Numbered from the stretch's first letter, positions 8,533-57,686 are shown. The stretch: 64,000 bases of DNA from Candidatus Babelota bacterium (GCA_003511165.1 DOJW01000007.1:148324-212323), one strand, 5' to 3'. Notes: generated from the letters alone by a model not told the origin. Translations and numbers: made by a program.

Positions 8533-8557
8533 CGATAGCTCCAGTTTTCAAAAACTT

Positions 8558-9658: not shown

Positions 9659-9670
9659 AAAAATCTTTTT

Positions 9671-10594: not shown

Positions 10595-10604
10595 AACTCT
10601 TCTT

Positions 10605-11554: not shown

Positions 11555-11558
11555 AAGT

Positions 11559-11963: not shown

Positions 11964-11981
11964 AAGACTCCTCTATTTAAA

Positions 11982-14358: not shown

Positions 14359-14403
14359 GGAATTTATCATCCCTTATTTATATCCCAATTTTTAAAACTT
14401 AAT

Positions 14404-31316: not shown

Positions 31317-31832
31317 TTATTTAGCGACACTCACTTTGGCATGTCTTACCACTTCGCCATTGTGCAAAAAGCCAAGGCTAAACACTTCTACTATTTCGCC
31401 GCTTTTATGGTTTTGGGAATCTGTTTGCATAATAGCTTCGTGCAAATTCGGATCAAAATTTCCACTGCAGTCAATCTCTACAACATTTAAATCTGCAAGT
31501 CTTTTGATCAGATTTTTTCTGATTAATTGTACACCATCAACCCACTTTTGCATCTCTTCGCTGTTTTCAATTTTTTGACTTGATTTGAGAGCCATGTCGA
31601 TATCATCTATTACCGGCAAAAGTGATCGAATAACTTCGCTTTGAGCGATTTTTATAATCTCAAACTTTTCTTTTTCAGCTCTTCTTTTGTAATTTTGAAA
31701 ATCTGCCGTGATTCTTAAAAATTGAGTTTCCCAATAATTGGGCTCAACTCCTTTTGATCCAGTTTCAACTTCGCTGGCAGAGTTGTCAGTTTTTTCTTTT
31801 AAATCTTTCTCATCAATTTCAGATTGAAACAT
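31317..31832 (-). CDS. grpE: Nucleotide exchange factor GrpE
   Basis: LRITADFQNYKRRAEKEK, LLPVIDDIDMAL, and a C-terminal beta domain GFLHNGEVVRHAKVSV. Confidence 0.85.
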   Translation of the reverse strand: MFQSEIDEKDLKEKTDNSASEVETGSKGVEPNYWETQFLRITADFQNYKRRAEKEKFEIIKIAQSEVIRSLLPVIDDIDMALKSSQKIENSEEMQKWVDGVQLIRKNLIKRLADLNVVEIDCSGNFDPNLHEAIMQTDSQNHKSGEIVEVFSLGFLHNGEVVRHAKVSVAK

Positions 31833-32122: not shown

Positions 32123-33334
32123 ATGAATAAAAATTTCAAAAATTTAACTCTAATTTTAACAATTTCATTTTTAACAATTTCTACTAAAATGTTTGCACCA
32201 CCTTCAGATTTTTTTGATTTGTATTCTGGATACGAGTCAAGGGGTACTTCCTCTCAGATAAAATATTTATTAACACAACAAGATACTATTAACGCCTCTT
32301 TACTTGAATTCGAAGCAGGGTTACACACACTTGAACACCCATCAGACTCAGATGCACTAGTATTAGATCCCAACAAAGATGCAAAAATAGCTTCATTAAA
32401 AGAAAAAATTAAACAGAAAAAAACAGCTCTTAGGGCTATAGACAACCAATTATCAAAATATGAAGCGCCAGGTTTTAAAGATATTATTGTGCGAAGTGCT
32501 CTTGGTGAAGATGCAAAAACTCTAGCTCGTGATTTTAGATCCAATGACGCAAGCTTTCCCATAATCGCTTTAGATATTCTCGCAGGAACAGGAACTCGAG
32601 TAATCAGTCGCCGGCTTGAAAGCGCTGTAGATAAAACAATAGGCTCTGCTTTCGAAAAGCTTTTAGCCACTGGAATAAATTGGGCAACAATACCCTTCAC
32701 CTGGACTTATAATAAATTCACAGGACGAGAAGGCGAACCTTTGCTTTACACAGAAATCGAAGCATGGGGAGTTATGTTAGAAAATACAGCTAAACAATTA
32801 ATTACTATCTCAACAAAGGCTACCACGCTTGGAGGCAGAGAAAAAATGCAACGAATGTCTTTAGATGAAGAGTCTGCCCCTGAAAATGTTTATGATGCTC
32901 AATGGGAAGGGATTAAAAAATTATATACAACGCTATTTCTCAACGTTGCAGATCAGTTAAACGAAAAATTAAAATATTATTCTGAAAGTTCTTCCTCCAA
33001 AGACAAACAAATCGTTGTTTATGGAACTCAAGCAAGAGATTGGATAAAGGCTTTCATAGAACAATGTTTTAGCAAAACCAAAACTTATAAAGATTTAGGT
33101 TCAAGCAATAATGTTATATTTTTAAACAGTTTACGAAGCCAGCTAAACATTTGTTTTGGAATATTGCTTGGTTATTTAGCTGATAACGAAAATCAAAAAA
33201 CAAAACCGCAAAGTAATTATAACTCTCCTTACTCCGGTGGATTTGCTAAACCATCAAGATATCCCTCTTCATTCAATAATCCAGACTATTCAATGGGAAT
33301 AGGTGGAGATTCTATGATGGACGCCTCAGACTAA
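32123..33334 (+). CDS. Hypothetical secreted protein
   Basis: Signal peptide MNKNFKNLTLILTISFLTISTKMFA and a Ser/Pro/Tyr/Gly-rich C-terminal tail. No family recognised. Confidence 0.55.
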   Translation: MNKNFKNLTLILTISFLTISTKMFAPPSDFFDLYSGYESRGTSSQIKYLLTQQDTINASLLEFEAGLHTLEHPSDSDALVLDPNKDAKIASLKEKIKQKKTALRAIDNQLSKYEAPGFKDIIVRSALGEDAKTLARDFRSNDASFPIIALDILAGTGTRVISRRLESAVDKTIGSAFEKLLATGINWATIPFTWTYNKFTGREGEPLLYTEIEAWGVMLENTAKQLITISTKATTLGGREKMQRMSLDEESAPENVYDAQWEGIKKLYTTLFLNVADQLNEKLKYYSESSSSKDKQIVVYGTQARDWIKAFIEQCFSKTKTYKDLGSSNNVIFLNSLRSQLNICFGILLGYLADNENQKTKPQSNYNSPYSGGFAKPSRYPSSFNNPDYSMGIGGDSMMDASD

Positions 33335-33371
33335 TTTCTGATTTAATTAAATGTTGATGGAGATAAATATT

Positions 33372-34238
33372 ATGAATTTTTTTAAATCAATTTGGTTTTG
33401 TTTGTTTCTGTGTTTAGTTGGTAACAACATAAATTTGTCAGCAACAGTTATTACATTGGAAAATACAAAAATAGAAAACTACAAACTAGAACAAATAAAT
33501 TTAGAAAAAATAAAAGAGCTAACGGCGGAATTCGAATCTAAAGAAACAACTAAGAATTGGGTTAAACGTGCGATCGTTACAACCGCAATACTCACAACCA
33601 TAGGTATAATAACTTACGAATGTTTTTTAAAGGGAAAATCTAAAACCTCTTCCAATGAATCTTCTCCAAAAACTGCTCTTAATGGTTGCCCAGGAATTCA
33701 TATACCAACAACTCGTGATAAAGTAGAAGATTGGGTTGTTTATATTACTCTAGGATCATTAACTATTCCTCTTGGAAACTGTTTCGACAAGGGAATTACA
33801 GAATCTTACAATAAAATCAGTAGTTGGTGGGGATCCAAAGGATTTTCGCCTGCATTATTTTTGCAACAATGTCAGCAAAATATTAGCTTAATGCAAAACA
33901 ACTTTGAAGGCATAATAAACTTACAAAACGACACTGCTTATTCGAATTTTTATTTAACTCGAGTCATCGAAACACATAATGCGCTTGTAGGTTCAATAGA
34001 ATGTTTAATAGCATCTTCGTTTGCATTATCAAATAATAAAAACAATAAAAACTGGTTATTAAGTGATCAAAATGGATTAATTTTAGAAATGGAAAGCCTA
34101 AGAACATTTTTAGACAAAATACTCCATCAAAATCCTGTTTCCATCGATTTAATAGAACTAAAAAATCATCTAAACAGTTTATTATTAAAAATACAACGAT
34201 TAAATATTGATTTTAGAATCGCACCCGAAAATGAATAA
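33372..34238 (+). CDS. Hypothetical secreted/membrane protein
   Basis: Start placed at ATG 33372 (MNFFKSIWFCLFLCLVGNNINLSA). Internal TM AIVTTAILTTIGIITY. No family recognised. Confidence 0.5.
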   Translation: MNFFKSIWFCLFLCLVGNNINLSATVITLENTKIENYKLEQINLEKIKELTAEFESKETTKNWVKRAIVTTAILTTIGIITYECFLKGKSKTSSNESSPKTALNGCPGIHIPTTRDKVEDWVVYITLGSLTIPLGNCFDKGITESYNKISSWWGSKGFSPALFLQQCQQNISLMQNNFEGIINLQNDTAYSNFYLTRVIETHNALVGSIECLIASSFALSNNKNNKNWLLSDQNGLILEMESLRTFLDKILHQNPVSIDLIELKNHLNSLLLKIQRLNIDFRIAPENE

Positions 34239-34287
34239 TTTTTTATATTTGTACAATTCTAAATTTATGAATATTTACAATATTTTC

Positions 34288-34402
34288 CTGGATCCCCGCA
34301 TTCGCGAGGATGACAGTGAGAGAAATATATATTGTAATTATTCCTCATTTTCAGAAGGAATTAGCAACCGATCCCGTCATCCTCGCGAATGCGGGGATCC
34401 AG
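34288..34402. repeat. 115-bp MITE-like element with perfect 27-bp terminal inverted repeats
   Basis: ctggatccccgcattcgcgaggatgac (34288-34314) is the exact reverse complement of gtcatcctcgcgaatgcggggatccag (34376-34402). Confidence 0.8.
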
Positions 34403-34470
34403 TCTTTATAGATCCAATCAAGGATGAAGATAAGATCCTATCAAGTAGTTCACAAAAATTGCACACACCC

Positions 34471-34590
34471 AATTCAAGCAATATCAAATTTGACAAAGTC
34501 CCACGTCATCCTCGCGAATTGCATATGTCTCATTCAAGCGATATCAGAATTGATAGTGTCCTCCGTCATCCTCGCGAATGCGGGGATCCA
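34471..34590 (+). repeat. Two tandem ~60-nt units ending in the same hairpin core (first copy truncated)
   Basis: aattcaagcaatatcaaatttgacaaagtcccacgtcatcctcgcgaatt... followed by cattcaagcgatatcagaattgatagtgtcctccgtcatcctcgcgaatgcggggatcca. A third unit lies at 35008-35066. Confidence 0.75.
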
Positions 34591-34620
34591 TTTCAAAATT
34601 TATACAAAAGAAATACCACA

Positions 34621-35103
34621 ATGAAAACCTTTTATGTTTATATTACTTGTTCTAAAAAAAATGGAACCTTATATATTGGGATGACCAATGATCTTACAAG
34701 GCGCATGCAAGAACATAAAAACAAATTAATTAAAGGATTCACAAAAAAATATTCGGTAAATTTGCTTGTATACTATGAAACATTTGAATCAATAATTGAT
34801 GCAATTAAAAGAGAAAAGCAATTAAAAAAATGGAAACGTGAATGGAAGATGCACTTTATCGAAAAGATCAATCCCAATTGGAAAGATTTAAGTGAAACCG
34901 ATATTTTCCTGGATCCCCGCATTCGCGAGGATGACAATAAGGAAAATATGAATTTTACATATTCTTCAGCAACTAACACCGATAACTTTAATATTGGCTC
35001 CCTCCCTAATTCAAGCGATATCAAAATTGACCAAGTCCCACGTCATCCTCGCGAATGCGGGGATCCAGTCTTCATTGCTCCAAACAAGGAAGAAAATGAA
35101 TAA
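34621..35103 (+). CDS. Small stand-alone GIY-YIG nuclease-domain protein (conserved core ~34621-34895; the C-terminal tail reads through repeat DNA)
   Basis: MKTFYVYITCSKKNGTLYIGMTNDLTRRMQEHK...REKQLKKWKREWK contains the GIY (VYI), YIG, Arg and Glu positions of the GIY-YIG fold. There is no in-frame stop until 35103, so the true C-terminus is uncertain. Confidence 0.7.
   Translation: MKTFYVYITCSKKNGTLYIGMTNDLTRRMQEHKNKLIKGFTKKYSVNLLVYYETFESIIDAIKREKQLKKWKREWKMHFIEKINPNWKDLSETDIFLDPRIREDDNKENMNFTYSSATNTDNFNIGSLPNSSDIKIDQVPRHPRECGDPVFIAPNKEENE
34919..35068. repeat. 150-bp MITE-like element with the same perfect 27-bp terminal inverted repeats
   Basis: ctggatccccgcattcgcgaggatgac (34919-34945) and gtcatcctcgcgaatgcggggatccag (35042-35068). 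Confidence 0.8.
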
Positions 35104-35935
35104 AAAATTTTTAATAATCTTTTTTTCAATTTTTCCATCTTTTACTTTAAATGGGTGTAAGTGGTGCACACAATGGAACCAAAACACACAAAATCTGAAC
35201 ATGCAAACAGAAAACAAAATCAATAAAGAATTAACAAAATCGCAAACTCCAACAAGCAATAACAATGAAGCTATCACAAAAAAAAACAATACAACGCAAA
35301 ATTCCGCTCTAAAAACAAAACAAGAAAAAACAATTTTCTATAAAAATTATTTAAAAAAATATTATCCACGAGCGCTGGTCATTTCCGACTATTTTTTCGA
35401 AATGTGTCCGATCGCAATAGATCAAGCGCTACAAGAATTAACGCTTATCCTTAGCGAAAAAGAATGGTTTTATTATCAAGATAAAAAAAGTGGATTTCGT
35501 GGCGGCGAATTTTGGGAAGTAACCCTAAAACAATGCAATACTATCGCGCTTAATTTAGAAAGCGCAAAAGTAAATGGTGAAACAGGCGAAATAATCAAAA
35601 GTTCACCAACAGAACAGTGTGATAATTACTTTGACAACGAAAATATAAATTTAAATCAATCGCTTTTCGAATTTTTTCAAACTCACAACTTAGTAGCATA
35701 TGAACAATTTTATGCGCATTTTGCAGACCGCATTGTAGAACTTTTCAACGAAGCCATAAAACTAAAAAATATTAATGCCGCATACGATTACGATTTATTA
35801 TTTAATTCGATTTTGCAATTTTTAAAAGATTCACCACTCTATGCAACGTATCAAAACGCTTCCAAAACGCACAAAGAGCTTTCTGAAATTTTATCTAATG
35901 AACTAGGTAATAACTATGCTCATAAAAATTTTTAA
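35096..35935 (+). CDS. Hypothetical protein, possible lipoprotein
   Basis: Start placed at ATG 35096 after aaggaag (MNKKFLIIFFSIFPSFTLNGC). The ORF-track start at 34994 lies in repeat DNA. Confidence 0.55.
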   Translation: MNKKFLIIFFSIFPSFTLNGCKWCTQWNQNTQNLNMQTENKINKELTKSQTPTSNNNEAITKKNNTTQNSALKTKQEKTIFYKNYLKKYYPRALVISDYFFEMCPIAIDQALQELTLILSEKEWFYYQDKKSGFRGGEFWEVTLKQCNTIALNLESAKVNGETGEIIKSSPTEQCDNYFDNENINLNQSLFEFFQTHNLVAYEQFYAHFADRIVELFNEAIKLKNINAAYDYDLLFNSILQFLKDSPLYATYQNASKTHKELSEILSNELGNNYAHKNF

Positions 35936-38900
35936 TTTTTTCACACTCCTCCTTTTTACAACTCCACTTTTGGCAGTTGCAGAGCTAGAAACTAATATTG
36001 CTACAAACCCACAAGAACAGCATCAATTTGTAAAAAGCTTTGTTTCGCATTATGACGCACGGACAGCAAGCAGATACACCCACGAATACCATAAACATAT
36101 TTTGACCAAAACGGCACAAAGTTTTTTAAGCCTTGAGCAAAAACTAAGATCTGAAAATATAAATGCTTGCGGACGAATAGTTGTCACAGGATATGAGGAA
36201 GGAGCTTTCCCGTCTTATTATACAAATTATAAAAAAGAATCCATCAACGACGAAGCATTTTCCAAAAATAAAACAGGTTGGTCGCAGCAACTTCACAATA
36301 AATTTGGATTTCTAACAGGGTTCTTATTTAAAGATGTTAATGAAATATTAAAAAAAACAGAAAATCCAACATATCTGCATATAAACCCAGAGCTTGTAGA
36401 GCTCTTTGATGAAAACAGCTCAATTTTTCAAGAACATGCTTTCGGCGAATCTTATGATTTACTTTTAGAGTACAAAAATATTTTGGAAAAAAAATTAAAA
36501 AAACAAGATCACAAAAATATTCTAAAAATATTAAAAGCTTTTTGGGAAGATATTTACTCCCGCGAGTTCAAAACCAATTCAAATCAACTAGCAGCGACTC
36601 AAGATATTTTGTTCTCCATTGAATATGCAAACTATTTGATGAGCTCAAATTTACCATTATTCAGATATTACACAGGTCCAGATATAACGTATCCAATCGA
36701 ACAATCTATAAAACAAAAAAAAGGCGCTACCAAACATTCTCAAAAATTTGTTCCTATCTTTTTGTCCAATTTGCAAGCAATCAATAATGAACCAACAGTT
36801 TATATTTTCTGCAGTTTTGTGGATGGTGTTGGCAAAAGTACAATGCTTGGAAATGTTAAAAACTGGATGGACTTCGGAGATGATATCGAAAAATATGAAA
36901 GAACGGACAATTCTTCTTCGCAATTTGCAGAAGTTTTTAAGTTTCAAGAAAACATTTTCATCGCTGATCTTCCAGCACAAGTTAGTCATTTCACATACAA
37001 GCCAGATGGACTTGTTTACACAGACTTTGAATCGGAACTCAAAGATACAACTTTTATAAGCGAAATAAGAACGTTCATCCAGCAAAATAAAGATTTTCTT
37101 TTTAACAGCTACTTTGAAAATGCAAAAAAAATTGAACTCGAACTAATCGCAGCCAGATTTTCTCAAGAAAAATTTTTGGCAGATGTAGAACCAGAAACAA
37201 AATTTATTCAAAATTTATTTTTACTAAAAAAAATTAATGCCAATGGATGGATTCCATTCACATTTAAAAATGAACATTTTTTATTTAATATTTTAAATCA
37301 ATCACAAGTTAGAATTTTACGACCACTTTGCAAAGTATCATCCTATGGTCTAAAAAATGTTGATGTCGAACAAATGATTTTTACGCAAGTAAATTTCCCT
37401 GCGTCCTTTGATATTTTCTTAAACGATTTCACAGCGAAGTTAAAAGAACAAAATATAAAAAATGCAGTTTTTGTAGACTTTATGAGTATGTACCCAAGGT
37501 CATCCCGCGAAAACATAAGAGTAAATTATTTACTTTACCAGCTTGCTCTTCTTAACCAAAATTTTGATATCGAGCACAGTTTTTACAAAAATTTTATTAG
37601 CGAAGCACAACTTTTTGCACATTTAAATTCAAAACAAGAATTTCCACTAATGGCAGAAAATTTTCGAGAAGAAAGTTTTCTACGCCTAGCACTTTTTGAG
37701 ATTATAGATAGAAGAAAAGATCAGTCATTTGAAGCTATGTTAATTGATCCATTATCAAAACATTTAACCATGCAACTCTCAGAGTTTCAAAGCAATACTC
37801 CTCTAAGCAGATACAACGAAGAAACAACATTCACAAAACTTGAAGAAGAGCGCGAAAACCTAGGTAAAACTTTCAACCGCAGTAAAGAATATTTAAGTAT
37901 TTGGCAGTTCAACTTTCAATTATTAGATATATTTTCCAAACAACTTACAAGAATTTTCACCGAAATGATTCATAATGAAAATTTAAATCAACTTTGGAGC
38001 GACTTTGACGGAGAAATTATTCCTCCACAGCAAACTGGAAATCTAAATGATGGAAAAACAAATAAAACTTTAGAACTAACAAATCAACAAAAACTGCTCG
38101 CAACTTTTGAGTTTTCTAGCGAGTTTAGAAGCGAAGAGTTTTTAACCCCATTTATAAGAACACTCCGAACATATTGGTATTCAACACTTGCAAACTTACT
38201 TTTTTGCCAAAACAACCAAATCGGAAAATTAAAATACCCAGTAGTTCCAACGATCGTAAAACATGAACCTAAAACAAACCGTTTTTACTTAGTTCAAAAG
38301 CTTTTACCTCTTGTAGAAAATGAAAAAATGAAAGGCAAAACGTTAAAAACATTTGGTTTAACATCTAACTTAAAATTCGCATTTTTTGAAGAAAATACAT
38401 TTCTACAATCCTTTACTCCACCAACAACAAATTGTGGAATATTCAGCTTTGATTTAAGTTATTTGGATCAAAAATCAAATCCATATTTTATGGGCAAAAC
38501 ATCTATAGTTAACCAAATCATAAAAGAATTTCAAAAAGAATACGGCGCTAACAAAGCTATTTTGACTAGCGAACTATACGAAAAATTACAAAGTAACGCG
38601 CAATGGCGAAAAGAAATTTACAATTTAAAAATGCAAGCACAACGAAGCGGCGAATACAATTCTGCTCAAAAACAAAATACCCCTAATGTAAATCCTCCTA
38701 TATTTTTAGGTGCACAATCGCAAATTTCAGGCGCTCAACTTTTTGTTCTAGCAATTGCAACACTTGAAATGATTTTAAAAGATCCCGACTGCTTTATTGC
38801 CGCAAGAAAAGGTAACAAAAAAGATTTTATCGCTACAATAAAGCTTCTTGAACTCGTAACTCTTCCAAAACATTTTCATATCATTTTCGCCCAACCTCTC

Positions 38901-38957
38901 TTCGAAAACTATGAAACTCTTCAGCCGCTTTTCCCTTGGGAATATTTCGAAAACTAA
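35916..38957 (+). CDS. Large (1013 aa) secreted hypothetical protein with a Walker-A/P-loop motif
   Basis: Signal peptide MLIKIFNFFTLLLFTTPLLAVA. IFCSFVDGVGKSTMLGNV (GVGKST at nt 36825-36842) resembles the xEGxDGxGKST loop of dNMP/dN kinases. Otherwise an orphan. Confidence 0.6.
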   Translation: MLIKIFNFFTLLLFTTPLLAVAELETNIATNPQEQHQFVKSFVSHYDARTASRYTHEYHKHILTKTAQSFLSLEQKLRSENINACGRIVVTGYEEGAFPSYYTNYKKESINDEAFSKNKTGWSQQLHNKFGFLTGFLFKDVNEILKKTENPTYLHINPELVELFDENSSIFQEHAFGESYDLLLEYKNILEKKLKKQDHKNILKILKAFWEDIYSREFKTNSNQLAATQDILFSIEYANYLMSSNLPLFRYYTGPDITYPIEQSIKQKKGATKHSQKFVPIFLSNLQAINNEPTVYIFCSFVDGVGKSTMLGNVKNWMDFGDDIEKYERTDNSSSQFAEVFKFQENIFIADLPAQVSHFTYKPDGLVYTDFESELKDTTFISEIRTFIQQNKDFLFNSYFENAKKIELELIAARFSQEKFLADVEPETKFIQNLFLLKKINANGWIPFTFKNEHFLFNILNQSQVRILRPLCKVSSYGLKNVDVEQMIFTQVNFPASFDIFLNDFTAKLKEQNIKNAVFVDFMSMYPRSSRENIRVNYLLYQLALLNQNFDIEHSFYKNFISEAQLFAHLNSKQEFPLMAENFREESFLRLALFEIIDRRKDQSFEAMLIDPLSKHLTMQLSEFQSNTPLSRYNEETTFTKLEEERENLGKTFNRSKEYLSIWQFNFQLLDIFSKQLTRIFTEMIHNENLNQLWSDFDGEIIPPQQTGNLNDGKTNKTLELTNQQKLLATFEFSSEFRSEEFLTPFIRTLRTYWYSTLANLLFCQNNQIGKLKYPVVPTIVKHEPKTNRFYLVQKLLPLVENEKMKGKTLKTFGLTSNLKFAFFEENTFLQSFTPPTTNCGIFSFDLSYLDQKSNPYFMGKTSIVNQIIKEFQKEYGANKAILTSELYEKLQSNAQWRKEIYNLKMQAQRSGEYNSAQKQNTPNVNPPIFLGAQSQISGAQLFVLAIATLEMILKDPDCFIAARKGNKKDFIATIKLLELVTLPKHFHIIFAQPLFENYETLQPLFPWEYFEN

Positions 38958-39073
38958 CTCAAAAAACGAATTTGTTGCCAAAATAAACTACTTTTTGAAA
39001 AACTAAAAAAGTTACAAAACTAAATATTTACAAAACATAAGTAGAATCGTAGGGGAAAAATAAGGAGAGGATT

Positions 39074-40390
39074 ATGATGAAACAAAATCGCAAACTGCTT
39101 ATAACTATCCTAGCAGTAGGATTAACAACAAATGTAGCAGCAATCGATAATGCTCATTTTTATAAAGCTGCACATTTGCACAGATCATCAACAACAAGTT
39201 TGTTCGATAAAGTAGAAAACTATGAAAATTATGATTGGTTTACCAAATTAGATGTGTCATACGCATATGGAGATACAAGATCAGCTTGGGACAAAAACGG
39301 ACATAGTGGTTCGCTTCTAAACAGAGTCGGCACGCATGATATGCTTTATCTCTTTGAAAACGTTCAAAAACTTGCAGATGCTCAATATTTCGCAAATTTT
39401 TTTCAAAGTGTTGTAAATCATAGCGCAACAAACAGCACGTTTGGTCAATTAGATTTCCATGGCAAATTCAGAATTCATGATGTTAACATAGATCTTCGTC
39501 AGAATTTGGTATCAAAATTCTTTGTAGATTTACATGTTCCTGTTCGCAGTGTAAGTGTACGAAGCATTTCTTATACAGATCTTTCACCAGATAACGGAAT
39601 TTATTCAAAAACAACACATGAGTGGATTCAATTCAAAAATCAATTAAATACTATTTTAAATACATATGGCTACAACTCTTACGGCTCAAAATATGAAAAA
39701 ACATCATTTGGTGATGCAAGTTTACTTCTTGGATGGGAAGGTAATTTCAAAACAGAAGGCGATGACCCAATTAAATTTAACTTAACTGCAAAAGCTGGAG
39801 TTTTATTCCCAACCGGTGTCAAAGAAAAGACAAATTATGTTTTCTCAGTTCCAACTGGATACAATGGCCACTGGGGTATTCCTCTGTTTGCACAATTTGA
39901 TATGATGCCAAAAGATTGGTTCACAATCGACGGCCAAGCTAGCGTAACATTCTTCTTTAACAAAACAATGGACAAGAGAATGAAAACATTCTCCAAACAA
40001 CAAAGTGATATTCGACTCGCTCATGGCAATGCAAAAGAAGAAAAAGGAACATTGTGGCATCTTGGTACCGATATCAAATTTGACCATATTTTAAAAGGTC
40101 TTTCAGCACTTGTCGGATATTCCTACAACAAACAAGAAAAAGATACCTTAAAGGCAACGGATTCTTCTCTTTTCGATTATTCAGCAGTCAATAGCGATAG
40201 CTTAATCAAAGGCTTTTCGATGCATGTAATTCACTTCATGGTCGATTACGACTTTAGTATTCACATGGAAGATTCGAAATGGGCACCACGCTTAAATGTT
40301 TTTTATAACTACCCATTTGATGGTAAGAATGCATTTAAGACAGATATGATCGGAGCCGGACTTGGCATGGATATTCGCTGGAAATTTTAA
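39074..40390 (+). CDS. Outer-membrane beta-barrel protein, paralog 2
   Basis: Signal peptide; C-terminal GMDIRWKF. Blocks shared with 2749-4080 and 56382-57686. Confidence 0.7.
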   Translation: MMKQNRKLLITILAVGLTTNVAAIDNAHFYKAAHLHRSSTTSLFDKVENYENYDWFTKLDVSYAYGDTRSAWDKNGHSGSLLNRVGTHDMLYLFENVQKLADAQYFANFFQSVVNHSATNSTFGQLDFHGKFRIHDVNIDLRQNLVSKFFVDLHVPVRSVSVRSISYTDLSPDNGIYSKTTHEWIQFKNQLNTILNTYGYNSYGSKYEKTSFGDASLLLGWEGNFKTEGDDPIKFNLTAKAGVLFPTGVKEKTNYVFSVPTGYNGHWGIPLFAQFDMMPKDWFTIDGQASVTFFFNKTMDKRMKTFSKQQSDIRLAHGNAKEEKGTLWHLGTDIKFDHILKGLSALVGYSYNKQEKDTLKATDSSLFDYSAVNSDSLIKGFSMHVIHFMVDYDFSIHMEDSKWAPRLNVFYNYPFDGKNAFKTDMIGAGLGMDIRWKF

Positions 40391-40433
40391 ATAAAAATGT
40401 TAATTAGTTAATGAAAAAAATAAGGAGAATAAT

Positions 40434-43136
40434 ATGAAGCAACTTAAGATACTGACATTGCTTGGTGCTACATGTTTATTTACATCGCTTGCACCGCTTA
40501 CACAAATAAGTCAAAGCAGCGGAACTGCTAACTTCGCACAAGATATTGGATCTAAAGCTTTCGACCGCTACACAGGTACATTTTATGTAGCCACAGTGGC
40601 TGCAAATGCAGCAAATTCTATTTCCAAAGCTGCACGAACCGATACAACATTTACAGGTATGGCAACCGGGGGCGCCATAGACGCTATATCATCAATCGGT
40701 CTTGTAAATAATGGTGGTGTTGGAGCAACTCATTTACCATTTAAAAGCAGTTCAAATCTTTTTCAAGCAATACAACTTTCAAGTTCTAGCTACACCGTTA
40801 CTGGTATTGCTACAGCATCTTTAATAACAGATACAGATGGAAATGCAGCAACAAATTGGGATCATATTACAGGATCTACAGAATTCGCATTTGTACGTGT
40901 TCATTCTAGAGTTGGAGGAGGAGCCAACTCTTTAGGTTCTGGAATTTCAGCTATTTGGGTAAGCGGAACAAGCGCACCTGTCGTAATGAGAAATGCTCTT
41001 CAATGGAATGCCGATCAGGCTTTTGCAAATCCACTTCGAATGGGAAGTACTGATTCCATCATGACAACATCTCCAGTTGTAAATGATTTATATTGGAGTA
41101 CAAGTTTATATTCTTTGATTATTACCGGATCTGCTAAGGCCGTAAATGTAGGCGCTGCGGGAACAAATTATTACTGTGCTATATCAACTGCTACAATAAA
41201 TAATGGGGCATTCTCTCTCAAAGAAGTTTTAGCTCCTGGCGTAAATCCTGCAGCAAACGATGTAAATACAATTTTTGTATACAGTAATACAAATAACACA
41301 AAATTTGCTTCTGTTGATATAAACAAAATTAGAGAAATGAGCACATCAACTGGAAAATATTATTTAATCGTTAATGGTGGAATTGAAGGTGGAGGAAATA
41401 GTTCACTAGGAAATTATGTTTTCTGCTTAAGATATAGCCCAACAGAATCCCACGTAATGCAAAATACATCGAATTGTATGTCACTTGCTAATAACTTTAA
41501 TGAAGTAAATTTAGCCGGTGATTCTCAATATTCTTTAACTGTTGGTGGCGGTGTCGCTCCTTGGGCAAACACATACTACGCTTCCGATATGGAAGTGATA
41601 GGCGATACTGTTTATGTATCATTCAATGGCGCAGCTAGAGATGCAAATAATGATCCAGGAGTCTGGGCATCTCAAGCTCTTTTTGATAACAACGGAATTA
41701 TTGCCGGTTGGACAAAATGGGAAAGAGTTTCACCTTCTCCACTTACAAATGCAAGCACCACAGATAGAGTACAATTCTTCTCCGTCGATGCAAGTAATGG
41801 AAAGATTTGGGAAGTTGCATTTAACTCAACATCAACTGGAACTCAAGCTGTTTTCCGATCCACTTGGAACACAACAGCTAACACAGCAAGTTCGCTTCCT
41901 TACATTTTAAACAGCGATACAACTTTCAATACTTACGGAATTTCATGTTGTTTAGATTTGATGCAAGGTACAACAGCTCTTTATAACCCCGCAAACTTCT
42001 GTAACTCACTTGCGCTTTTTGGCGGTTATCAAAAAGTTGCAATTGCTCAAACTAAATCTGGAATGGCAAATGCTATAACAACAGACTTTTCACTTCCTGC
42101 TAACTATAAAGCAACAACATTCACCGATTCTGCAATGGTAAGATGCTTAGAATTCTCAAGAGCTCCATTAAATGGAACAGATACCAAAGGTTATTTTTTC
42201 GCAGGTTGTGACCATGGACTTTATGTTTATGCTACAACAACAAATGCAGGATTCAGCACCGCACCAGCAACAGGCGGAATTTCAGATCTAAACACAATAT
42301 TCGGAACAAGTTTTAGCTGGAGCAGATTATTACAAAATTCAATCACTGGCGCAGTAAGCCAAGTAGAAAGTGATGGAACCAATATTTACGCCGTTGAGCA
42401 AGATATTACATCCGTAGGTAGCATAACTGATAAATTATGGAGAATTCCTCTTGCAAATACAACCACAGCAATGGCCGGTACTACAATCGCCCAATCTGGC
42501 TCGGGCAACATACCTGCAAATGCAGTAATTTCTGGATTCAAAATTGTAAAACTTGATAGCGATGTTACTGGTTATCGCGGAATATTATCAACAAATGCAG
42601 GAACTTACATATCAACTAAATTATTAGGCGATGCAACAACCGCTGACTGGACTGCTATAGATTCTACAAAATGTTACCATTCTCTCTACTCAACCAAACG
42701 TACACCTTCCGCATCCATTCCAAATTATGGACAAGCAAGCAAAGTTTTTGGAATTCATTTCACAGATGTAGGTGGACATAATTATTACCAAAATAGTTTG
42801 TTCGATTTAATTACAACATCATCTTCGTTTTATTCAACTGACAATGTACCTGACACAAACACTTATACAAACGCCAGCGGTACAATAACATCTCTTGATA
42901 GATCATTATCTTTTTACACCGATGGTGCACGACGATTTTACACAAGATTTGATCCGTCAGAAACTGTTTACAATGCATTAAGAATTCTTCCTTACAACAC
43001 CGCAGAGTGGAATATGACAACTCCTTATGCTCCAACAGATTTGAGCTCACTTTTAAGACTACACTGGATTGAAAATATTTCCGGAAATGGAACAATATTA
43101 GCAGGAACTGATAGCGGAGTTGTTTCGTTAGAGTAA
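40434..43136 (+). CDS. Large (900 aa) Thr/Ser/Gly/Asn-rich secreted surface protein, paralog of 57722-60610
   Basis: Signal peptide. Collinear similarity to the 57722-60610 product, e.g. GDTVYVSFNGAARDANNDPGVWASQALFDNNGIIAGWTKWERV versus GDSVYVCLTGDSAAVDEPSKQGIFYSSAIFNKDGVIAKWTPWQRV. Confidence 0.7.
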   Translation: MKQLKILTLLGATCLFTSLAPLTQISQSSGTANFAQDIGSKAFDRYTGTFYVATVAANAANSISKAARTDTTFTGMATGGAIDAISSIGLVNNGGVGATHLPFKSSSNLFQAIQLSSSSYTVTGIATASLITDTDGNAATNWDHITGSTEFAFVRVHSRVGGGANSLGSGISAIWVSGTSAPVVMRNALQWNADQAFANPLRMGSTDSIMTTSPVVNDLYWSTSLYSLIITGSAKAVNVGAAGTNYYCAISTATINNGAFSLKEVLAPGVNPAANDVNTIFVYSNTNNTKFASVDINKIREMSTSTGKYYLIVNGGIEGGGNSSLGNYVFCLRYSPTESHVMQNTSNCMSLANNFNEVNLAGDSQYSLTVGGGVAPWANTYYASDMEVIGDTVYVSFNGAARDANNDPGVWASQALFDNNGIIAGWTKWERVSPSPLTNASTTDRVQFFSVDASNGKIWEVAFNSTSTGTQAVFRSTWNTTANTASSLPYILNSDTTFNTYGISCCLDLMQGTTALYNPANFCNSLALFGGYQKVAIAQTKSGMANAITTDFSLPANYKATTFTDSAMVRCLEFSRAPLNGTDTKGYFFAGCDHGLYVYATTTNAGFSTAPATGGISDLNTIFGTSFSWSRLLQNSITGAVSQVESDGTNIYAVEQDITSVGSITDKLWRIPLANTTTAMAGTTIAQSGSGNIPANAVISGFKIVKLDSDVTGYRGILSTNAGTYISTKLLGDATTADWTAIDSTKCYHSLYSTKRTPSASIPNYGQASKVFGIHFTDVGGHNYYQNSLFDLITTSSSFYSTDNVPDTNTYTNASGTITSLDRSLSFYTDGARRFYTRFDPSETVYNALRILPYNTAEWNMTTPYAPTDLSSLLRLHWIENISGNGTILAGTDSGVVSLE

Positions 43137-43157
43137 AGTTGCAAAAAACAATTAATA

Positions 43158-43196
43158 AGAAAGGGGCGGAAAATTCCGCCCCTTTCTTATTTTGTT
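43158..43196 (+). terminator. Rho-independent terminator of CDS 40434-43136
   Basis: 12-bp stem agaaaggggcgg (43158-43169) / ccgcccctttct (43176-43187), followed by tattttgtt. Confidence 0.75.
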
Positions 43197-43282
43197 ACAA
43201 TCCATGTTTTGTCTAATTTTAATTAAATATTTTTTAAATTTTAAAATTTTTGATATTAATTTCTTCTTCCGTTTCTTTCTTT

Positions 43283-43762
43283 TTTTATTTTTATCTTTAG
43301 CTGCTCCCGCAGTGGGGCAAGGAGATTTTGTCGCAAAAACCTCCTTGCATCCTCCGTGCGCCAAAAGAGGACTTTTGGATTTCCTACAACGCTAAACTAT
43401 CTGGATGCAACTACGTTGCACTGCGATAGTAGCGTTGCAATGCGGATACACAAATTTTATTTACTGGGTTTAGAACTTTTGCGAAAATCTATTTTATATT
43501 TCCTTTATTTTTCTAAATTTGAATTGTTGAAAAATTTAGAAAAACGTCTTTATGAGAATATAGGATTCCAAATTAGCGCTACCTGTTTGAACTGCAGTCC
43601 AGTTTTACTGGATGCAGGAGTTTAGCGCGTAGAGAGATTACAAAGAAACCTCTTTGTTTTGGGGATCCAAGGGTGTTCAAATCAACACCCTTGGCCCTAG
43701 CGGAGCTAATTTGATTAAAAAAAAAGTAAAACAAACTTAAAGCAGAATAATTTTAAATAAAC
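43283..43762. repeat. GC-rich composite repeat island B (inverted relative to island A)
   Basis: The left end (43283-43325) is the reverse complement of the A/C right-end module. 43497-43560 is ~90% identical to 51296-51360. 43643-43707 is the reverse complement of 14471-14535. Confidence 0.8.
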
Positions 43763-43864
43763 GGAAGAAGAATAGAATTAAATTAAATTAAGAAAATTAG
43801 GTAAAAAAATAAGGGACCATTTCTGATCCCTTTGTCCTTTTATCAAATATTTTTGAAAAAAGAT

Positions 43865-50814: not shown

Positions 50815-51527
50815 TTTATTATTCTACTTTAAGTTTGTTTTTTAATTTTATTTTGTCAAAGATTCTACCCGCCCAGACTTCGCATAAAGCTTCGTCGGGT
50901 AAACTATGGGCCAAGGGCGCTCAAAATACAGCCCCCTTGGATCCCCAAACTAAAGAGAAATATCTTTGGAATCTCTGACGTGCAAAATTTATTTATTCTT
51001 AGTTTATCTTTTAATTTATTTTTATCTTTGGATTGCTACACGCAAGGTGACAGAGAGGATTATACGCAAAATCCTCTCTGTACTCTCCTATGCGCAAAAA
51101 GAGACTTTTGGATTTCCTTCAACGCAACGCTAAACTGTCTGGTCACAATTTCATTGTGCTGCGACAGTAGCCTTGCAAATAAGGATCCACAATAGATACA
51201 ATAGACCTCCCCTGAAACCAGACATAAAAAATCCGTTTGCCCTGAGCGAAGCCTTTTTATGGCGTAGTCGAATGGGTACAAACGGCATAATATGTATCTT
51301 CCTTTATTTTTCTAAATTTGAATTGTTGAAAAATTTAGAAAAACGTCTTAATGAGAATGTAAGATTCTGATCCAGCACTATCTGTTTGAGTCGGAGTACA
51401 ACGTAGTTGTATCCCGGCGAGTTTAGTGCTGTAGAGATTTTAAAGAAACCTCTTTAATGCGTGATTGCAAAGGGTGCGCATTCATCCTTTGCCCCCCTGC
51501 GGGAGCAGCCAGAAATAAAAAAATAGA
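50815..51527. repeat. GC-rich composite repeat island C (largest; contains A-type left modules, B-type internal modules and the 6228-6276 module)
   Basis: 50988-51018 is identical to 14410-14438. 50908-50980 is homologous to 14488-14560. 51085-51180 is homologous to 43350-43440. 51234-51282 is the reverse complement of 6228-6276. 51368-51497 is homologous to 14701-14830. Confidence 0.8.
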
Positions 51528-51649
51528 TAAAAGAAACAGAAGAAGAATTAGAAAACAAACTTAAAACAGAATGACGTCATAAATTAAAAATAAAGAAATG
51601 AAGGAAGAGTTAATTAACAAACAAAAAAAGAATTTAGATAAAACAGGAT

Positions 51650-51683: not shown

Positions 51684-52637
51684 TCACTTCCACATCACAA
51701 ACAAAGCAATTACAAGAGAATAAATAGCAGATGATTCAATAATTGCTTGCGTCATTAAAGTATTTCGCAAAATCAAATTATAATTGTCTGGATTTTCTGC
51801 AATCATTTTACATGCCTTGGATGCAACATAACCAGTCGAAATACCAACTCCAATTGCACCAAATCCCATAGCAATCGCAGCAGCCAAAGAAGAAACAACT
51901 GATGTAAAAAGCAATGAAGAAGATTTGGAATAAATAAGCAAAAATGAAACTATAAAAGAAAAGATAACCGGCGTTTCGATAATCGCCTGACTAAACAAAG
52001 TAAATGGAAAAATTTTACTGTAAGCAGATTTATTTAAACCTATCGAATGACATGCACTTTTGACAAAAATTCCCTGCCCTATCGTTGGCCCAACACAACC
52101 AAATGCGATAACAAGTGCGGCAGCGAAAAGATGCATTCCTTGATAAAGTGAAATCGGATTAACAACAAAAGTTTTAATTATCAAAAAAATTATAAATGCA
52201 AAAATAACTGGTGCTTCAATAATAGATTGTGTAATCAACATAAATGTTGTAATTTTTTGCGCAAAATTGGGTTGACGAAAAATTGATTTGCAAGCTTCTT
52301 TTACCGCCATACTTGATGAAAATCCGACCACAGCCGCAACAAGCCCCATTGCAAATCCACTTCCAAATCTTGCAAGTCCAACTCCCATCGTTGTTGTATC
52401 TTTAGAAATATCAAAAATAGATAAAATTACCGCGACAAATGCTAAAATCGCACCACTTTCTGTTATACCAAGACCTATCATCAACGTTCGAAAGCCTGCT
52501 TCATGTCCCATTTTTTGCCGCTCTAAACCATCAAGTGCACCAAATCCACCAAAACCTTGACCAAAAGCAACACCTAAAGCGCTAAAGATAATTGCAAAAA
52601 TAGGACCTAAGTATGCTAGAATTAGAGGAGTTAACAT
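51684..52637 (-). CDS. atpE: F-type ATP synthase subunit c, four tandem fused c-hairpins (317 aa, ~8 TM)
   Basis: Four ~79-aa units, each with a Gly-rich helix 1, a polar loop (ERQKM / RQPNF / GLNKS / AENPD) and helix 2 with a conserved Glu (GITESGAIL, SIIEAPVIF, AIIETPVIF, AIIESSAIY). Lies immediately downstream of atpB with a 7-nt overlap. Confidence 0.8.
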   Translation of the reverse strand: MLTPLILAYLGPIFAIIFSALGVAFGQGFGGFGALDGLERQKMGHEAGFRTLMIGLGITESGAILAFVAVILSIFDISKDTTTMGVGLARFGSGFAMGLVAAVVGFSSSMAVKEACKSIFRQPNFAQKITTFMLITQSIIEAPVIFAFIIFLIIKTFVVNPISLYQGMHLFAAALVIAFGCVGPTIGQGIFVKSACHSIGLNKSAYSKIFPFTLFSQAIIETPVIFSFIVSFLLIYSKSSSLLFTSVVSSLAAAIAMGFGAIGVGISTGYVASKACKMIAENPDNYNLILRNTLMTQAIIESSAIYSLVIALFVMWK

Positions 52638-53491
52638 TTTTCTTCCTTTGTTAAATGCTCATCATCATGGGATCCATGAGCAAGAGCAACCGATAAGTAT
52701 GTTATAGCAAGCATCGTGATAACAAATGCTTGGATGAAACCTTCAAATACTCCAAAAAACATCTGCGCACCTGAAAGTAAAAAAATTATTAAAAAAGAGG
52801 TATAAAAAAAATATTTCAAAATTTTAATTTTAAAAAGATTAAACTTTTTGCTAAAGATCCAAAATATAAACAAAATCAAATATGTAAAAATAAGGTAATA
52901 CAAACTAAAGCCTTCAAATAACATTACAAGCAGGGAGTAAACAATCGCTCCACCTAAAATATTTCCAAACAACCGAAAAGACATCGAAACAACACTTGCA
53001 AGCTTGCCTACAACTTCCAAAGGAAGTAAAAAAGCAACAGGTTCTATAAATGTTTTTAGATAACCACGTAATCCTAAATATTTTATACTTTGATATTGAA
53101 CAAACAAAAAAGCACTTATGCCTAAAGCAAATGTTGTGTTTATATCAACCGTAGACTCTTTACAAAAAGGCAAAATACCTATCAAATTACAAGCCAACGT
53201 GAAGAAAAACATACTGCCCACAAACGCAAAATATTCATATTTAAAAAAGCCAATAGATTCCGCGCAAAGATCTGCTAAAAAAATAATAGCTTGTTGAAAT
53301 ATATAAGATGTAGGATGATTCTCTTTTTTCAAATAATGACGAGCTATCAATCCGCCACCAACAAGAAAAACCATCGCAATCCACGTATATAAAATTGTAT
53401 AAATATTTATTTCAAAAAAAGAATTTTTAACACCTAAAAAAGAAAATAAATTTACAGTTTCTTGCGGTTCTAAAACTTCAAATTTCATCAA
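52631..53491 (-). CDS. atpB: F-type ATP synthase subunit a
   Basis: Multi-TM, 286 aa, with the conserved stator Arg block SMSFRLFGNILGG. Confidence 0.85.
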   Translation of the reverse strand: MMKFEVLEPQETVNLFSFLGVKNSFFEINIYTILYTWIAMVFLVGGGLIARHYLKKENHPTSYIFQQAIIFLADLCAESIGFFKYEYFAFVGSMFFFTLACNLIGILPFCKESTVDINTTFALGISAFLFVQYQSIKYLGLRGYLKTFIEPVAFLLPLEVVGKLASVVSMSFRLFGNILGGAIVYSLLVMLFEGFSLYYLIFTYLILFIFWIFSKKFNLFKIKILKYFFYTSFLIIFLLSGAQMFFGVFEGFIQAFVITMLAITYLSVALAHGSHDDEHLTKEEKC

Positions 53492-54379: not shown

Positions 54380-54421
54380 ACCGAGAAGATTAAATGCTAC
54401 AATCTTCTCGGTTTTGATTTT
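54380..54421 (+). terminator. Rho-independent terminator after CDS 54055-54354
   Basis: 12-bp stem accgagaagatt (54380-54391) / aatcttctcggt (54401-54412), followed by tttgattttt. Confidence 0.7.
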
Positions 54422-56332: not shown

Positions 56333-56368
56333 ATAAAAAAGACCAGCTTATCACTGGTCTTTTTTTTA
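56333..56368. terminator. Bidirectional-looking rho-independent terminator after the OMP gene 56382-57686
   Basis: 7-bp stem agaccag (56340-56346) / ctggtct (56354-56360), flanked by an A-run and a T-run. Confidence 0.6.
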
Positions 56369-56381
56369 CTTTTTTTAAATT

Positions 56382-57686
56382 TTAAAAATTAAATGCTAAA
56401 ACTCCACCAAAGGTACTTGCCATAATTGTTCGACGACCAATAAGCGGATATTTATAGAACAAACTTAACTGAGGCTTAATTTTTGCATTTGGAAAATCTT
56501 TATAAAAATCATAACTTAAATTAAAAATCAGATTATGATAATTCCACTCCATAAAACTTTGCGCAGTATTCGCAATATCTTGATTAAAATTCAAATCATG
56601 AACTTGCAAAGTATCTTCTCCATTTGTTCCATATTGATAATTTAACTTAGCACTTAAACCATGGAAAAAATGTTCCGCACCAGCATACATGTTAAAAGTC
56701 CATTGATTGCCAAATGATCTTCTTACCATTCCTTTATTTAATAACAAAAAATCTGTTTGATTGGAATCTGACTTTAATCGATAAACCTTTGTGATATCAA
56801 AAACTTTTATCATTTCCAAATCTACACCAAATCTAAATTTGTATTTGAATGATAAGTCTAGCGACGCAGCAATTGGGAATGCAAATGCTCCATCATTTCC
56901 AAGCGGCATACTAAAAGATTTGTTTACATCTATTTCTGGGCTTGTAGGCAAAATCAAACCTGTTCGAAAACCTAAGCGCACATTTTTTAATGTTGATTTA
57001 TATTTAGGAAAATCATTGTACCAACGCAAAATTAATTCTAAATCACCAAACCCAGTTTTTGACCAGCTTCCAATATCTAAATCTCCAAGATTTTTAACAA
57101 CAGTCGCAATGTCATTTGTCAAAACTCTTTTTACCTCTAAATCTGCTGCATTATAACTTTTGGTTTGATCAATCCACTGAACATCTTTTATTTTTAAACT
57201 TCGAACTGGCAAATAAGCGGTAAAATCAAATTTTCCAGGTATTGATTCGAAATCAAAATTAAATTGTGAATACAAAGAATAATCAATCCCTTCGAATTTT
57301 CCATTTACCTTAAAGCTTCCTCTGTTATTATCTGTATTTGGAGTTGTATACGCATCTTCTATACTGTTCTTTAGATTATAAATTGCGCTTCCTGGCTGAG
57401 CTTGAAGCAACATGGCAAGAGAAGATTGTTTGTCTTGGTACAAAGAAAGCAGATTTACACTGTCTCTGTTATAATTTCTAGATTTTTTTGTAGAACCAAA
57501 CTCTAAAGTGTTGCCAATTTTTACAATTTCTCTTTTATTTTTTCCTTTTATAGGCCAAGAAGTCATTCTAAAATTTGGATCATGCGGTTTTGTGAAATTT
57601 ATAGGAGCATAAGCAAATGGGTTTAAATTTCCAAATAAAAAAAATATTCCAAAAATCTTTAAAATATATACTTTGTGCAATTTCAT
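56382..57686 (-). CDS. Outer-membrane beta-barrel protein, paralog 3
   Basis: Signal peptide; C-terminal GGVLAFNF. Shared blocks (LPVRSLKIKDVQWIDQT, KTGFGDLELILRW) with the other two OMP paralogs. Confidence 0.7.
   Translation of the reverse strand: MKLHKVYILKIFGIFFLFGNLNPFAYAPINFTKPHDPNFRMTSWPIKGKNKREIVKIGNTLEFGSTKKSRNYNRDSVNLLSLYQDKQSSLAMLLQAQPGSAIYNLKNSIEDAYTTPNTDNNRGSFKVNGKFEGIDYSLYSQFNFDFESIPGKFDFTAYLPVRSLKIKDVQWIDQTKSYNAADLEVKRVLTNDIATVVKNLGDLDIGSWSKTGFGDLELILRWYNDFPKYKSTLKNVRLGFRTGLILPTSPEIDVNKSFSMPLGNDGAFAFPIAASLDLSFKYKFRFGVDLEMIKVFDITKVYRLKSDSNQTDFLLLNKGMVRRSFGNQWTFNMYAGAEHFFHGLSAKLNYQYGTNGEDTLQVHDLNFNQDIANTAQSFMEWNYHNLIFNLSYDFYKDFPNAKIKPQLSLFYKYPLIGRRTIMASTFGGVLAFNF

Follow-up and report, generated by a model that had tools for sequence, protein, structure and literature searches.

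A conserved gene pair of Dependentiae coding for a predicted FapF/COG4313-like outer-membrane barrel and a predicted tandem beta-propeller

Outer-membrane barrels that work with a partner protein are known from several modules, namely FapF/FapC, TpsB/TpsA, SusC/SusD and PorQ/PorZ. FapF and the COG4313 channels are 12-stranded barrels whose lumen is occluded by the segment preceding strand 1 (PMC5557850, PMC4493636). COG4313 proteins carry a conserved Pro-Thr-Gly-x-Tyr (PTGxY) in loop L3 (PMC4493636), and FapF has two Pro-Thr-Gly (PTG) motifs at the bases of its beta5-beta6 loop (PMC5557850). Here we describe a pair of adjacent genes, encoding an outer-membrane protein (OMP-A) and a large secreted protein (BIG-A), in a 64,000-nt stretch of a Candidatus Babelota genome (GCA_003511165.1, DOJW01000007.1:148324-212323; hereafter the window). 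The window's proteins are identical to hypothetical proteins (locus tags DEO28_...) of a metagenome-assembled genome (MAG) of Candidatus Dependentiae (TM6), a phylum of ubiquitous obligate parasites of protists whose host contact and entry are almost uncharacterised. We found that the pair belongs to the vertically inherited core of the Dependentiae, as an envelope module of two genes in which a barrel resembling FapF and COG4313 by predicted fold is joined to a predicted tandem beta-propeller.

Re-reading the open reading frames (ORFs) upheld the preliminary description of this locus in its coordinates, protein lengths, C-terminal DIRWKF, intergenic gap and terminator (Table 1). The same description had placed a second copy on the other strand with its gene order swapped, on which ORFs and BLASTP agree, and a third OMP paralog, likewise recovered by BLASTP. 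OMP-A and BIG-A are each preceded at the proper distance by AAGGAG, and since no terminator was found in the spacer between them, the two genes should be co-transcribed; the terminator behind BIG-A is 91% conserved behind the propeller gene of a further pair described below. In copy 2, the BIG-B ORF could open at 60652, but the signal peptide and the family alignment favour the start codon listed. Both families carry Sec type-I signal peptides without a lipobox in the members whose intact N-termini were listed.

Table 1. Features of the OMP/BIG loci in the window (positions counted from its first letter; a dot marks features given without a strand).
Feature	Position	Strand	Remarks
Secreted Hydrolase_4 alpha/beta-hydrolase gene	1728-2699	.	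Lies before OMP-C; signal peptide
OMP-C	2749-4080	+	443 aa; stand-alone barrel paralog without propeller partner
Operon 5' leader	39041-39073	+	Shine-Dalgarno AAGGAG at 39062-39067
OMP-A	39074-40390	+	438 aa; C-terminal DIRWKF
OMP-A Sec signal peptide			aa 1-23; cleavage after VAA; mature N-terminus DNAHFYKA
OMP-A candidate lumen plug	39143-39238	+	Residues 24-55, before strand 1
OMP-A L1 tip	39365-39439	+	Residues 98-122; hypervariable patch
OMP-A two PTG motifs	39809-39862	+	Residues 246-263 (PTG...FSVPTGY); bases of beta5-beta6 loop
OMP-A/BIG-A spacer	40391-40433	+	43 nt; Shine-Dalgarno AAGGAG at 40422-40427
BIG-A	40434-43136	+	900 aa
BIG-A Sec signal peptide			aa 1-20; ...TSLA
BIG-A variable region	40602-41333	+	Residues about 57-300; most variable, insertion-rich; top column entropy
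BIG-A conserved core	41331-41813	+	Residues 300-460; most conserved (TSTGxxYLIVNGG; DMEVxGDTVYVS; FDxxGxIxGWTxWERV)
BIG-A conserved C-terminal blades	42864-43133	+	Residues 811-900 (FWTDGGRRFY...WIENISG...AGTDxGV)
Bidirectional intrinsic terminator after BIG-A	43154-43191	.	17-bp stem, 8 GC, then T-run
Copy 2 closing hairpin terminator	56335-56365	.	
OMP-B	56382-57686	-	434 aa; type-B barrel paralog, 35 nt behind BIG-B
BIG-B	57722-60610	-	962 aa from ATG 60610; type-B propeller paralog, first gene of copy 2

A BIG profile-guided scan of 185,579 genomes (one representative per species), using peptide patterns that include one from the conserved C-terminal segment (residues 811-900), recovered 48 loci, whose six-frame ORFs were searched with hidden Markov models (HMMs) of both families. 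Four of these loci end at a contig edge on the relevant side, and at all 44 informative loci an OMP-family gene lies on the same strand as BIG, with a gap that is usually 4-120 nt. The conserved functional pair that the preliminary description had proposed, with co-occurrence as its check, is thus borne out, as it is by a third pair on another contig of the same genome (OMP then BIG, 44-nt gap). Some of the 48 loci are labelled 'uncultured Pseudomonadota' and were treated as Dependentiae, several of them sharing the GrpE-flanked synteny. Named homologs are labelled Dependentiae, Babeliales or TM6, and the bulk of matches are metagenome proteins. An exhaustive profile search placed the large-protein family in 1,053 clusters at 50% identity (775 at E <= 1e-30, nearly all of about 900-1,050 aa).

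The usual gene order is OMP then BIG. The reverse order, with BIG (often in two copies) before OMP, is found in a minority (L040, L042, L043, L044, L046 and copy 2 of the window). In L025, L008, L040, L044 and L046, a single barrel goes with tandem propeller genes (three propellers in L025, one on either side of the barrel in L008), and propellers that share a barrel are only 33-59% identical to one another. The main pair sits within a housekeeping block (GrpE, OMP and BIG, SSB ... CDP-alcohol phosphatidyltransferase; 18-27 loci). GrpE is its divergent upstream neighbour at 27 loci, and the genes downstream are those for SSB, CDP-alcohol phosphatidyltransferase and MnmA, which marks the pair as a core, vertically inherited locus. 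Beyond this synteny, no conserved third gene accompanies the pair in the loci recovered. At two of five type-B loci, the gene directly upstream of the pair encodes the lipid II flippase MurJ (window 60695-62269, minus strand; L040 3236-4795), which is absent there in the other three.

Within the window, pairwise BLASTP aligned OMP-A with OMP-B at 24% identity (E 2e-28) and with OMP-C at 29% (E 1e-57), and BIG-A with BIG-B at 25% across 526 aa (E 7e-19), so that paralogy in both families, as judged from sequence comparison, is far beyond chance. The BIG family profile spans all of BIG-B (HMM positions 1-948), and because it covers that protein from one end to the other, BIG-A and BIG-B are collinear; 'diverged but collinear', as they had been called, is an apt term.

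The third pair shows how divergence is distributed along the locus. Its resemblance to the window copy starts at 39041, in the 5' leader, and runs through the barrel gene (about 77-95% nucleotide identity, overall 88%), rising to 97% in the spacer and the first ~150 nt of the propeller gene. This high-similarity block stops near 40586; the propeller body then falls to 43-74% (43-71% in residues about 57-300), and the terminator and downstream region return to 85-91%. At the protein level, the OMPs are 90% and the propellers 57% identical; synonymous divergence (dS) is 0.39 in the barrel gene and 1.19 in the propeller gene, and dN/dS is 0.15 and 0.27, respectively. Of the 45 amino-acid differences between the two barrels, 13 fall within 25 residues (98-122) at the tip of loop L1. 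Codons 61-120 of OMP-A reach pN 0.18 and pS 0.53, near propeller level, and no segment of the barrel other than the L1 tip shows propeller-like divergence. Among 34 complete pairs, the propeller had diverged more than its barrel in 91% of comparisons, and the two distance matrices correlated strongly (Mantel r 0.90), a sign of co-inheritance that is confounded by shared phylogeny. Since positive selection alone cannot raise dS, either gene conversion has homogenised the flanks or recombination between conserved handles has exchanged the propeller body. The propeller and the L1 tip of the barrel undergo faster, recombination-assisted divergence.

AlphaFold2 modelled OMP-A from a 56-sequence alignment with high confidence (pLDDT 89.5, pTM 0.86) as a barrel of about 12 long strands. 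Its turns on the periplasmic side have 2-9 residues and its extracellular loops are long, L1 (52 aa) and L2 (37 aa) being enlarged and helix-bearing. Strands here and blades below were counted from DSSP strings of the predicted models, and the plug was positioned by analogy. The model has no periplasmic domain able to recruit cargo: the mature protein opens at the plug motif, the periplasmic surface is minimal, and turn T2 is the most variable element of that side. Mature OMPs start with a nearly invariant DNxHFY(K/R)A (D25, N26, H28, F29 and Y30 each in 80-84 of 98 family members) and have about 32 residues in all before strand 1. In OMP-A, the segment before strand 1 has pLDDT 66-76 and isolated beta-bridges. 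By analogy with Pput2725, residues 24-55 are a candidate plug of the right place and length, with the lumen position taken from that analogy rather than read from coordinates. Both PTG motifs are well conserved in the family (P246 95/98, T 83/98 and G 80/98 in the first; P260 83/98, T 56/98, G262 96/98 and Y263 84/98 in the second).

When the OMP-A model was compared with the PDB by Foldseek, FapF was the top match (E 4e-13, TM 0.65-0.73 normalised to FapF) and the COG4313 channel Pput2725 (4rl8) had the highest TM-score (0.75-0.77), both with a Foldseek probability of 1.0; the autotransporter barrels EstA and EspP stood further down the list. FadL/TodX reached TM of only 0.3-0.4 with a root-mean-square deviation of 13-17 A, and there was no FadL (PF03349) match in Pfam. 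None of the window OMPs matched PF13557, to which one of 56 members had a weak match below the Pfam threshold (E 0.005), and two OMP profiles found no PDB sequence at E <= 10. Because sequence methods miss the relationship, the OMP family is, on its predicted fold, a distant structural relative of the FapF/COG4313 12-stranded plugged barrels and not a demonstrated member. The preliminary description recognised no characterised family for either protein, which stands for the large protein, with no family match, but not for the OMP, given its kinship to FapF/COG4313 by predicted fold and PTG motifs.

The BIG-A model (28 sequences; pLDDT 82.8, pTM 0.89) is all-beta and compact, with about 54 strands in roughly 14 four-stranded blades, and both of its termini are structured, with no disordered tail or linker. 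The BIG family is thus predicted to be a tandem beta-propeller. Foldseek returned generic two- and three-propeller proteins at TM about 0.25 (Sro7, Elp2, DDB1 and the periplasmic sensor BT4663), and matches among viral structures were also generic, including phage fibre-like proteins. None of 28 BIG members matched any propeller or other family in Pfam at E <= 1 (WD40, BNR/Asp-box, YVTN, Reg_prop and PQQ among them), an NCBIfam scan gave no propeller or other family, and the BIG profile found no PDB sequence at E <= 10. Nothing above threshold came from scanning the five window proteins against Pfam and NCBIfam, or from individual scans of family members in sets of 28, 56 and 38. No match in Pfam, NCBIfam or PDB sequences therefore places the large protein in a well-known family with another secretion route. 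The protein had been called rich in Thr, Ser, Gly, Asn and Ala, and these residues do make up 51% of BIG-A, a clear outlier among the other 30 window proteins (24-43%, most 25-35%). BIG-A has 12% Lys, Arg, Asp and Glu, 2.4% Lys (mostly 7-13% in the other proteins) and an isoelectric point of 5.1, and its composition, which is of an extracellular type, also departs sharply from that of the window's other signal-peptide proteins. Variation along the family is uneven: residues about 57-300 hold 11 of 28 insertion hot spots, while residues 560-600 are conserved in addition to the segments of Table 1. The family has conserved Cys residues. That the propeller is a lipoprotein was considered and rejected, as 'LLGATC' in BIG-A does not qualify as a lipobox and the consensus of the family shows a signal peptide of type I.

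OMP-C and its orthologs in other Dependentiae bear on what the barrel does. The orthologs are stand-alone genes without a propeller partner in a conserved neighbourhood (CDP-alcohol phosphatidyltransferase, then ArgRS and LepA), and the barrel family must therefore have a function of its own, plausibly, by analogy with its structural relatives, that of a channel through which hydrophobic molecules pass. Barrels linked to a propeller are paralogs that have become specialised. A secreted Hydrolase_4 alpha/beta-hydrolase is encoded at two of three OMP-C ortholog loci, directly upstream in L052. Loci that combine OMP-C with the hydrolase (window 1728-4080, L051 1403-7356, L052 4839-7353; LpxB near in two of three) are candidates for a lipase plus hydrophobic-molecule channel pair in host-lipid uptake. 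We also considered OMP-C and an overlapping 316-aa secreted protein (4068-5018) as a second barrel-cargo pair and rejected it, as the orthologous loci are without that gene.

The reading that we favour, tentatively and as somewhat short of probable, is that the propeller docks to its barrel at the cell surface and serves there as a variable protein for contact with the host; its location, contact and role we infer from the features above. Both products would reach the periplasm via Sec, the first folding into a plugged 12-stranded outer-membrane barrel of FapF/COG4313 type and the second into a compact tandem propeller. The folded propeller would cross the outer membrane most plausibly by a type II secretion system (T2SS), and a compact model whose two termini are structured is in keeping with export of an already folded protein. 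T2SS genes for GspF, GspG and pseudopilins lie at 9671-13208 in the window. According to the literature, the T2SS is core in TM6 and is the one secretion system detected in Babela. Once outside, the propeller may attach non-covalently to the extracellular loops of the barrel encoded with it, the hypervariable L1 tip being the putative contact; a barrel without a cargo-recruiting periplasmic domain favours such outside docking over a stand-alone translocon. The displayed propeller could form a coat, or act as an adhesin or as a trigger of uptake. Propeller genes in paralogous and tandem copies would keep diversity, and recombination or gene conversion would keep the barrel gene, the propeller 5' end and the terminator near-identical as the propeller body diverges.

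Several points weigh against this proposal. The contact between barrel and propeller is a proposal, the structures of both having been predicted as monomers, and surface location is argued from the propeller's composition and evolutionary rate alone. We know of no T2SS targeting signal that could be looked for. Variability of L1 could reflect the exposure of the loop itself and not contact with the propeller, and the Mantel correlation carries the phylogenetic confounding noted above. The existence of OMP-C orthologs without a propeller leaves an intrinsic, probably channel, function unexplained. Finally, the descriptions of Chromulinavorax and Babela, in the portions accessible to us, mention no S-layer or surface coat.

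Alternatively, the barrel could be a dedicated exporter that threads the unfolded propeller through the outer membrane, possibly holding on to it afterwards, as a split type-V-like pair. The best structural matches of OMP-A do pass polypeptides (FapF and, lower in the list, the EstA and EspP autotransporter barrels), and the family has the hallmark double PTG of FapF at the beta5-beta6 loop. Genes for translocators and their cargo are typically neighbours, several tandem propellers are served by one barrel, and the propeller has a Sec signal and no other recognisable export or anchoring signal. Its low charge and low Lys content also resemble those of proteins secreted unfolded. However, the barrel lacks a recruiting domain (neither the FapF coiled coil nor POTRA) and opens at the plug motif, and its cargo would be an 880-aa compact double propeller with buried termini and conserved Cys residues, not the vectorially folding beta-helix or disordered substrate typical of export through narrow barrels. 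The stand-alone OMP-C orthologs have no adjacent cargo, and the COG4313 channel that matches just as well (TM 0.77) works as an importer. We therefore regard dedicated export as unlikely. A broader form of it, in which a FapF/autotransporter-like barrel both exports and holds tandem-propeller cargo as a host-range determinant that is core to the phylum, with gene conversion homogenising the barrel gene and the 5' handle of the cargo gene and the cargo body being swapped or diverging, would be novel and is in our estimate improbable as well.

Nutrient uptake is another candidate role, in which a COG4313-type channel takes up hydrophobic or amphipathic molecules of the host, for instance lipids and sphingoid bases, and the propeller captures the substrate at the surface, in the manner of SusD/SusC or TbpB/TbpA. 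It agrees with the highest TM-score of the OMP-A model, which is to Pput2725; with the conserved segment of about 32 residues before strand 1, which corresponds to the longer N-terminal plugs that TcpY and SphA are inferred to have; and with the PTGxY cluster, a proposed lateral gate. The OMP-C gene is conserved beside the secreted hydrolase and lipid-metabolism genes, and an MlaD lipid-transport protein is encoded within the window. Surface receptors of uptake systems also evolve fast. Chromulinavorax gives no evidence of making lipids and relies on import from the host (PMC6561590). Against uptake, the propeller shows no recognisable ligand- or lipid-binding family and, unlike known surface receptor partners, is no lipoprotein. 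Lipopolysaccharide is reduced or lost in Babeliales according to the literature, which would lessen the need for a hydrophobic-uptake channel, and several propellers of 33-59% identity on one barrel fit antigenic or host-range variation better than a single substrate. We consider this role, too, doubtful.

A third alternative keeps the propeller in the periplasm, where it would bind the N-terminal peptide or the turns of the barrel as an envelope organiser or tether in place of Lpp, Pal, OmpA or OmpM. Propellers often bind short peptides, as in TolB-Pal, and the N-terminal motif of the barrel is ultra-conserved. The pair is core and syntenic throughout the phylum, with MurJ directly upstream of the type-B pair in the window and in L040, and homologs of these four known tethers were looked for in ten Dependentiae genomes without success (bioRxiv 10.1101/2021.05.31.446380). 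Yet a fast-evolving, multiplied and recombining propeller is unexpected in a housekeeping periplasmic scaffold, its composition is far from that of the window's other signal-peptide proteins, and no peptidoglycan-binding domain was detected in the propeller family. The barrel, for its part, offers a minimal periplasmic surface whose turn T2 is so variable. Babela is predicted to be without peptidoglycan, which would weigh against such a scaffold if Babela keeps the pair. We judge this alternative quite unlikely. That the two genes are mere neighbours by descent is extremely improbable: the housekeeping block could pass some adjacency on passively, but the adjacency has outlasted duplication and relocation (three pairs in three neighbourhoods of one genome), type-B pairs stay linked with their order reversed, and the gaps are operon-sized with a single terminator.

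The surroundings of the loci in the window, whose G+C content is 27-38%, hold several further features. The T2SS/pseudopilin cluster lies within 6952-13208 on the minus strand (GspF 11982-13208, GspG 11559-11963 and two pseudopilins with N-methylation motifs) and is followed by a 526-aa MlaD-domain protein (6952-8532); these are what the window offers for protein export across the outer membrane and for the trafficking of lipids. Between GrpE (31317-31832) and the main pair, about 7 kb is inserted compared with most Dependentiae (32123-38957, plus strand), carrying a GIY-YIG nuclease-domain protein (34207-35103) and a 1,013-aa protein (35916-38957) with a hydrophobic, signal-peptide-like N-terminus and no family match. 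Behind BIG-A lies a strongly structured, relatively G+C-rich non-coding repeat (43255-43816; RNA folding z for 43295-43725 of -6.3 on the plus and -10.05 on the minus strand), with copies of 73-85% identity at 14370-14788, at 50934-51547 and behind the third pair (L002 10781-11433). It has no Rfam, tRNA or tmRNA match and may be a miniature inverted-repeat transposable element (MITE)-like element or a non-coding RNA family; Rfam and tRNA scans of the window as a whole also gave no match. Copy 2 is adjoined downstream by a 633-aa WD40 beta-propeller protein (54421-56322, minus strand) with a hydrophobic, signal-peptide-like N-terminus, and WD40 proteins also lie beside the OMP-C ortholog in L051 (2829-5585). 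Unlike the BIG family, these have weak WD40-family matches in Pfam, mostly under gathering scores, and are likely eukaryote-like effectors. An ATP synthase c-subunit gene (51684-52637, minus strand) encodes 317 aa with four separate PF00137 matches, adjoins a normal a-subunit gene (52631-53491) and looks tandemly fused and multiplied, which is unusual in a bacterial F-type operon. A secreted PP2C phosphatase seems to be split into two ORFs (5440-6072 and 5039-5377, minus strand), possibly by a frameshift, pseudogene formation or an assembly error. In a long-read Babeliales MAG (L049 3583-7918), the barrel and propeller genes are in several frame-shifted pieces, either pseudogenised or with uncorrected sequencing errors.

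Neither family has a Pfam or NCBIfam model, the source names their members only 'hypothetical protein', and we found no description of the barrel-propeller pair in the full-text literature on outer-membrane proteins, propellers, S-layers or adhesins of Dependentiae. Presence at every informative locus, the housekeeping block, strong translation and termination signals and multiplication single the pair out as a leading candidate for the phylum's principal surface determinant, and barrel and propeller may together form the parasite's variable host-contact surface complex. The pair offers concrete targets in the few cultured members (Babela, Vermiphilus, Chromulinavorax).

Among known systems, FapF (PDB 5o65) shares with OMP-A the 12 strands, a possible plug before strand 1, the double PTG and a gene beside those of Sec-dependent secreted proteins. 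OMP-A differs in having neither the N-terminal periplasmic coiled coil nor its linker, and no fap operon partners (FapA-E, with the amyloid subunits FapB/C/E and the protease FapD); the partner of FapF is a disordered amyloid subunit and that of OMP-A a predicted folded propeller of 900 aa. Sequence similarity between OMP-A and FapF was undetectable with two profiles against the PDB. COG4313/PF13557 proteins (Phenol_MetA_deg: Pput2725, SphA, TcpY) are likewise monomer-sized 12-stranded barrels with a segment before strand 1 and the L3 PTGxY, but have 270-320 aa compared with about 415 aa in the mature OMP, whose ~100 extra residues lie in extracellular loops L1 and L2, and their genes lie in catabolic operons for hydrophobic compounds instead of beside a propeller.

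Type Va autotransporters (chlamydial polymorphic membrane proteins, EspP, EstA) also have a 12-stranded barrel of similar fold, and the chlamydial proteins, with their large, low-charge, polymorphic and multi-paralog surface moiety in an obligate intracellular setting, are a functional analogy. A type Va identity was rejected in view of two ORFs that lie 43 nt apart and have a signal peptide each, the absence of a PF03797 match and a propeller that is not a beta-helix. Type Vb two-partner secretion (16-stranded Omp85 barrel, POTRA, TPS domain) was likewise set aside, given 12 strands, no periplasmic domain and no Pfam match. PorQ-PorZ and PorV-PorU of the type IX secretion system (T9SS) each combine a small FadL-like outer-membrane barrel with a surface protein, as the OMP/BIG pair would, and PorZ contains two beta-propellers. 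PorQ and PorV are 14-stranded, however, and PorZ has a T9SS C-terminal domain. A PorQ/PorZ-like complex was rejected since the C-terminus of BIG-A lies within the last blades, no such C-terminal domain family was matched and the barrel is predicted to be 12-stranded; the top 50 Foldseek matches of BIG-A did not include PorZ. T9SS is not reported for Dependentiae in the literature, which gives the T2SS alone for Babela.

SusC/SusD and TbpA/TbpB also pair adjacent genes for a barrel and a faster-evolving surface partner, but SusC and TbpA are 22-stranded TonB-dependent transporters with lipoprotein partners, whereas the OMP has 12 predicted strands and a propeller without a lipobox. On the predicted models, the combination of a FapF/COG4313-like 12-stranded barrel with a Sec-dependent, non-lipidated tandem propeller is not among the known modules, and the barrel's kinship would extend the FapF/COG4313 superfamily to a new phylum and to a new kind of partner.

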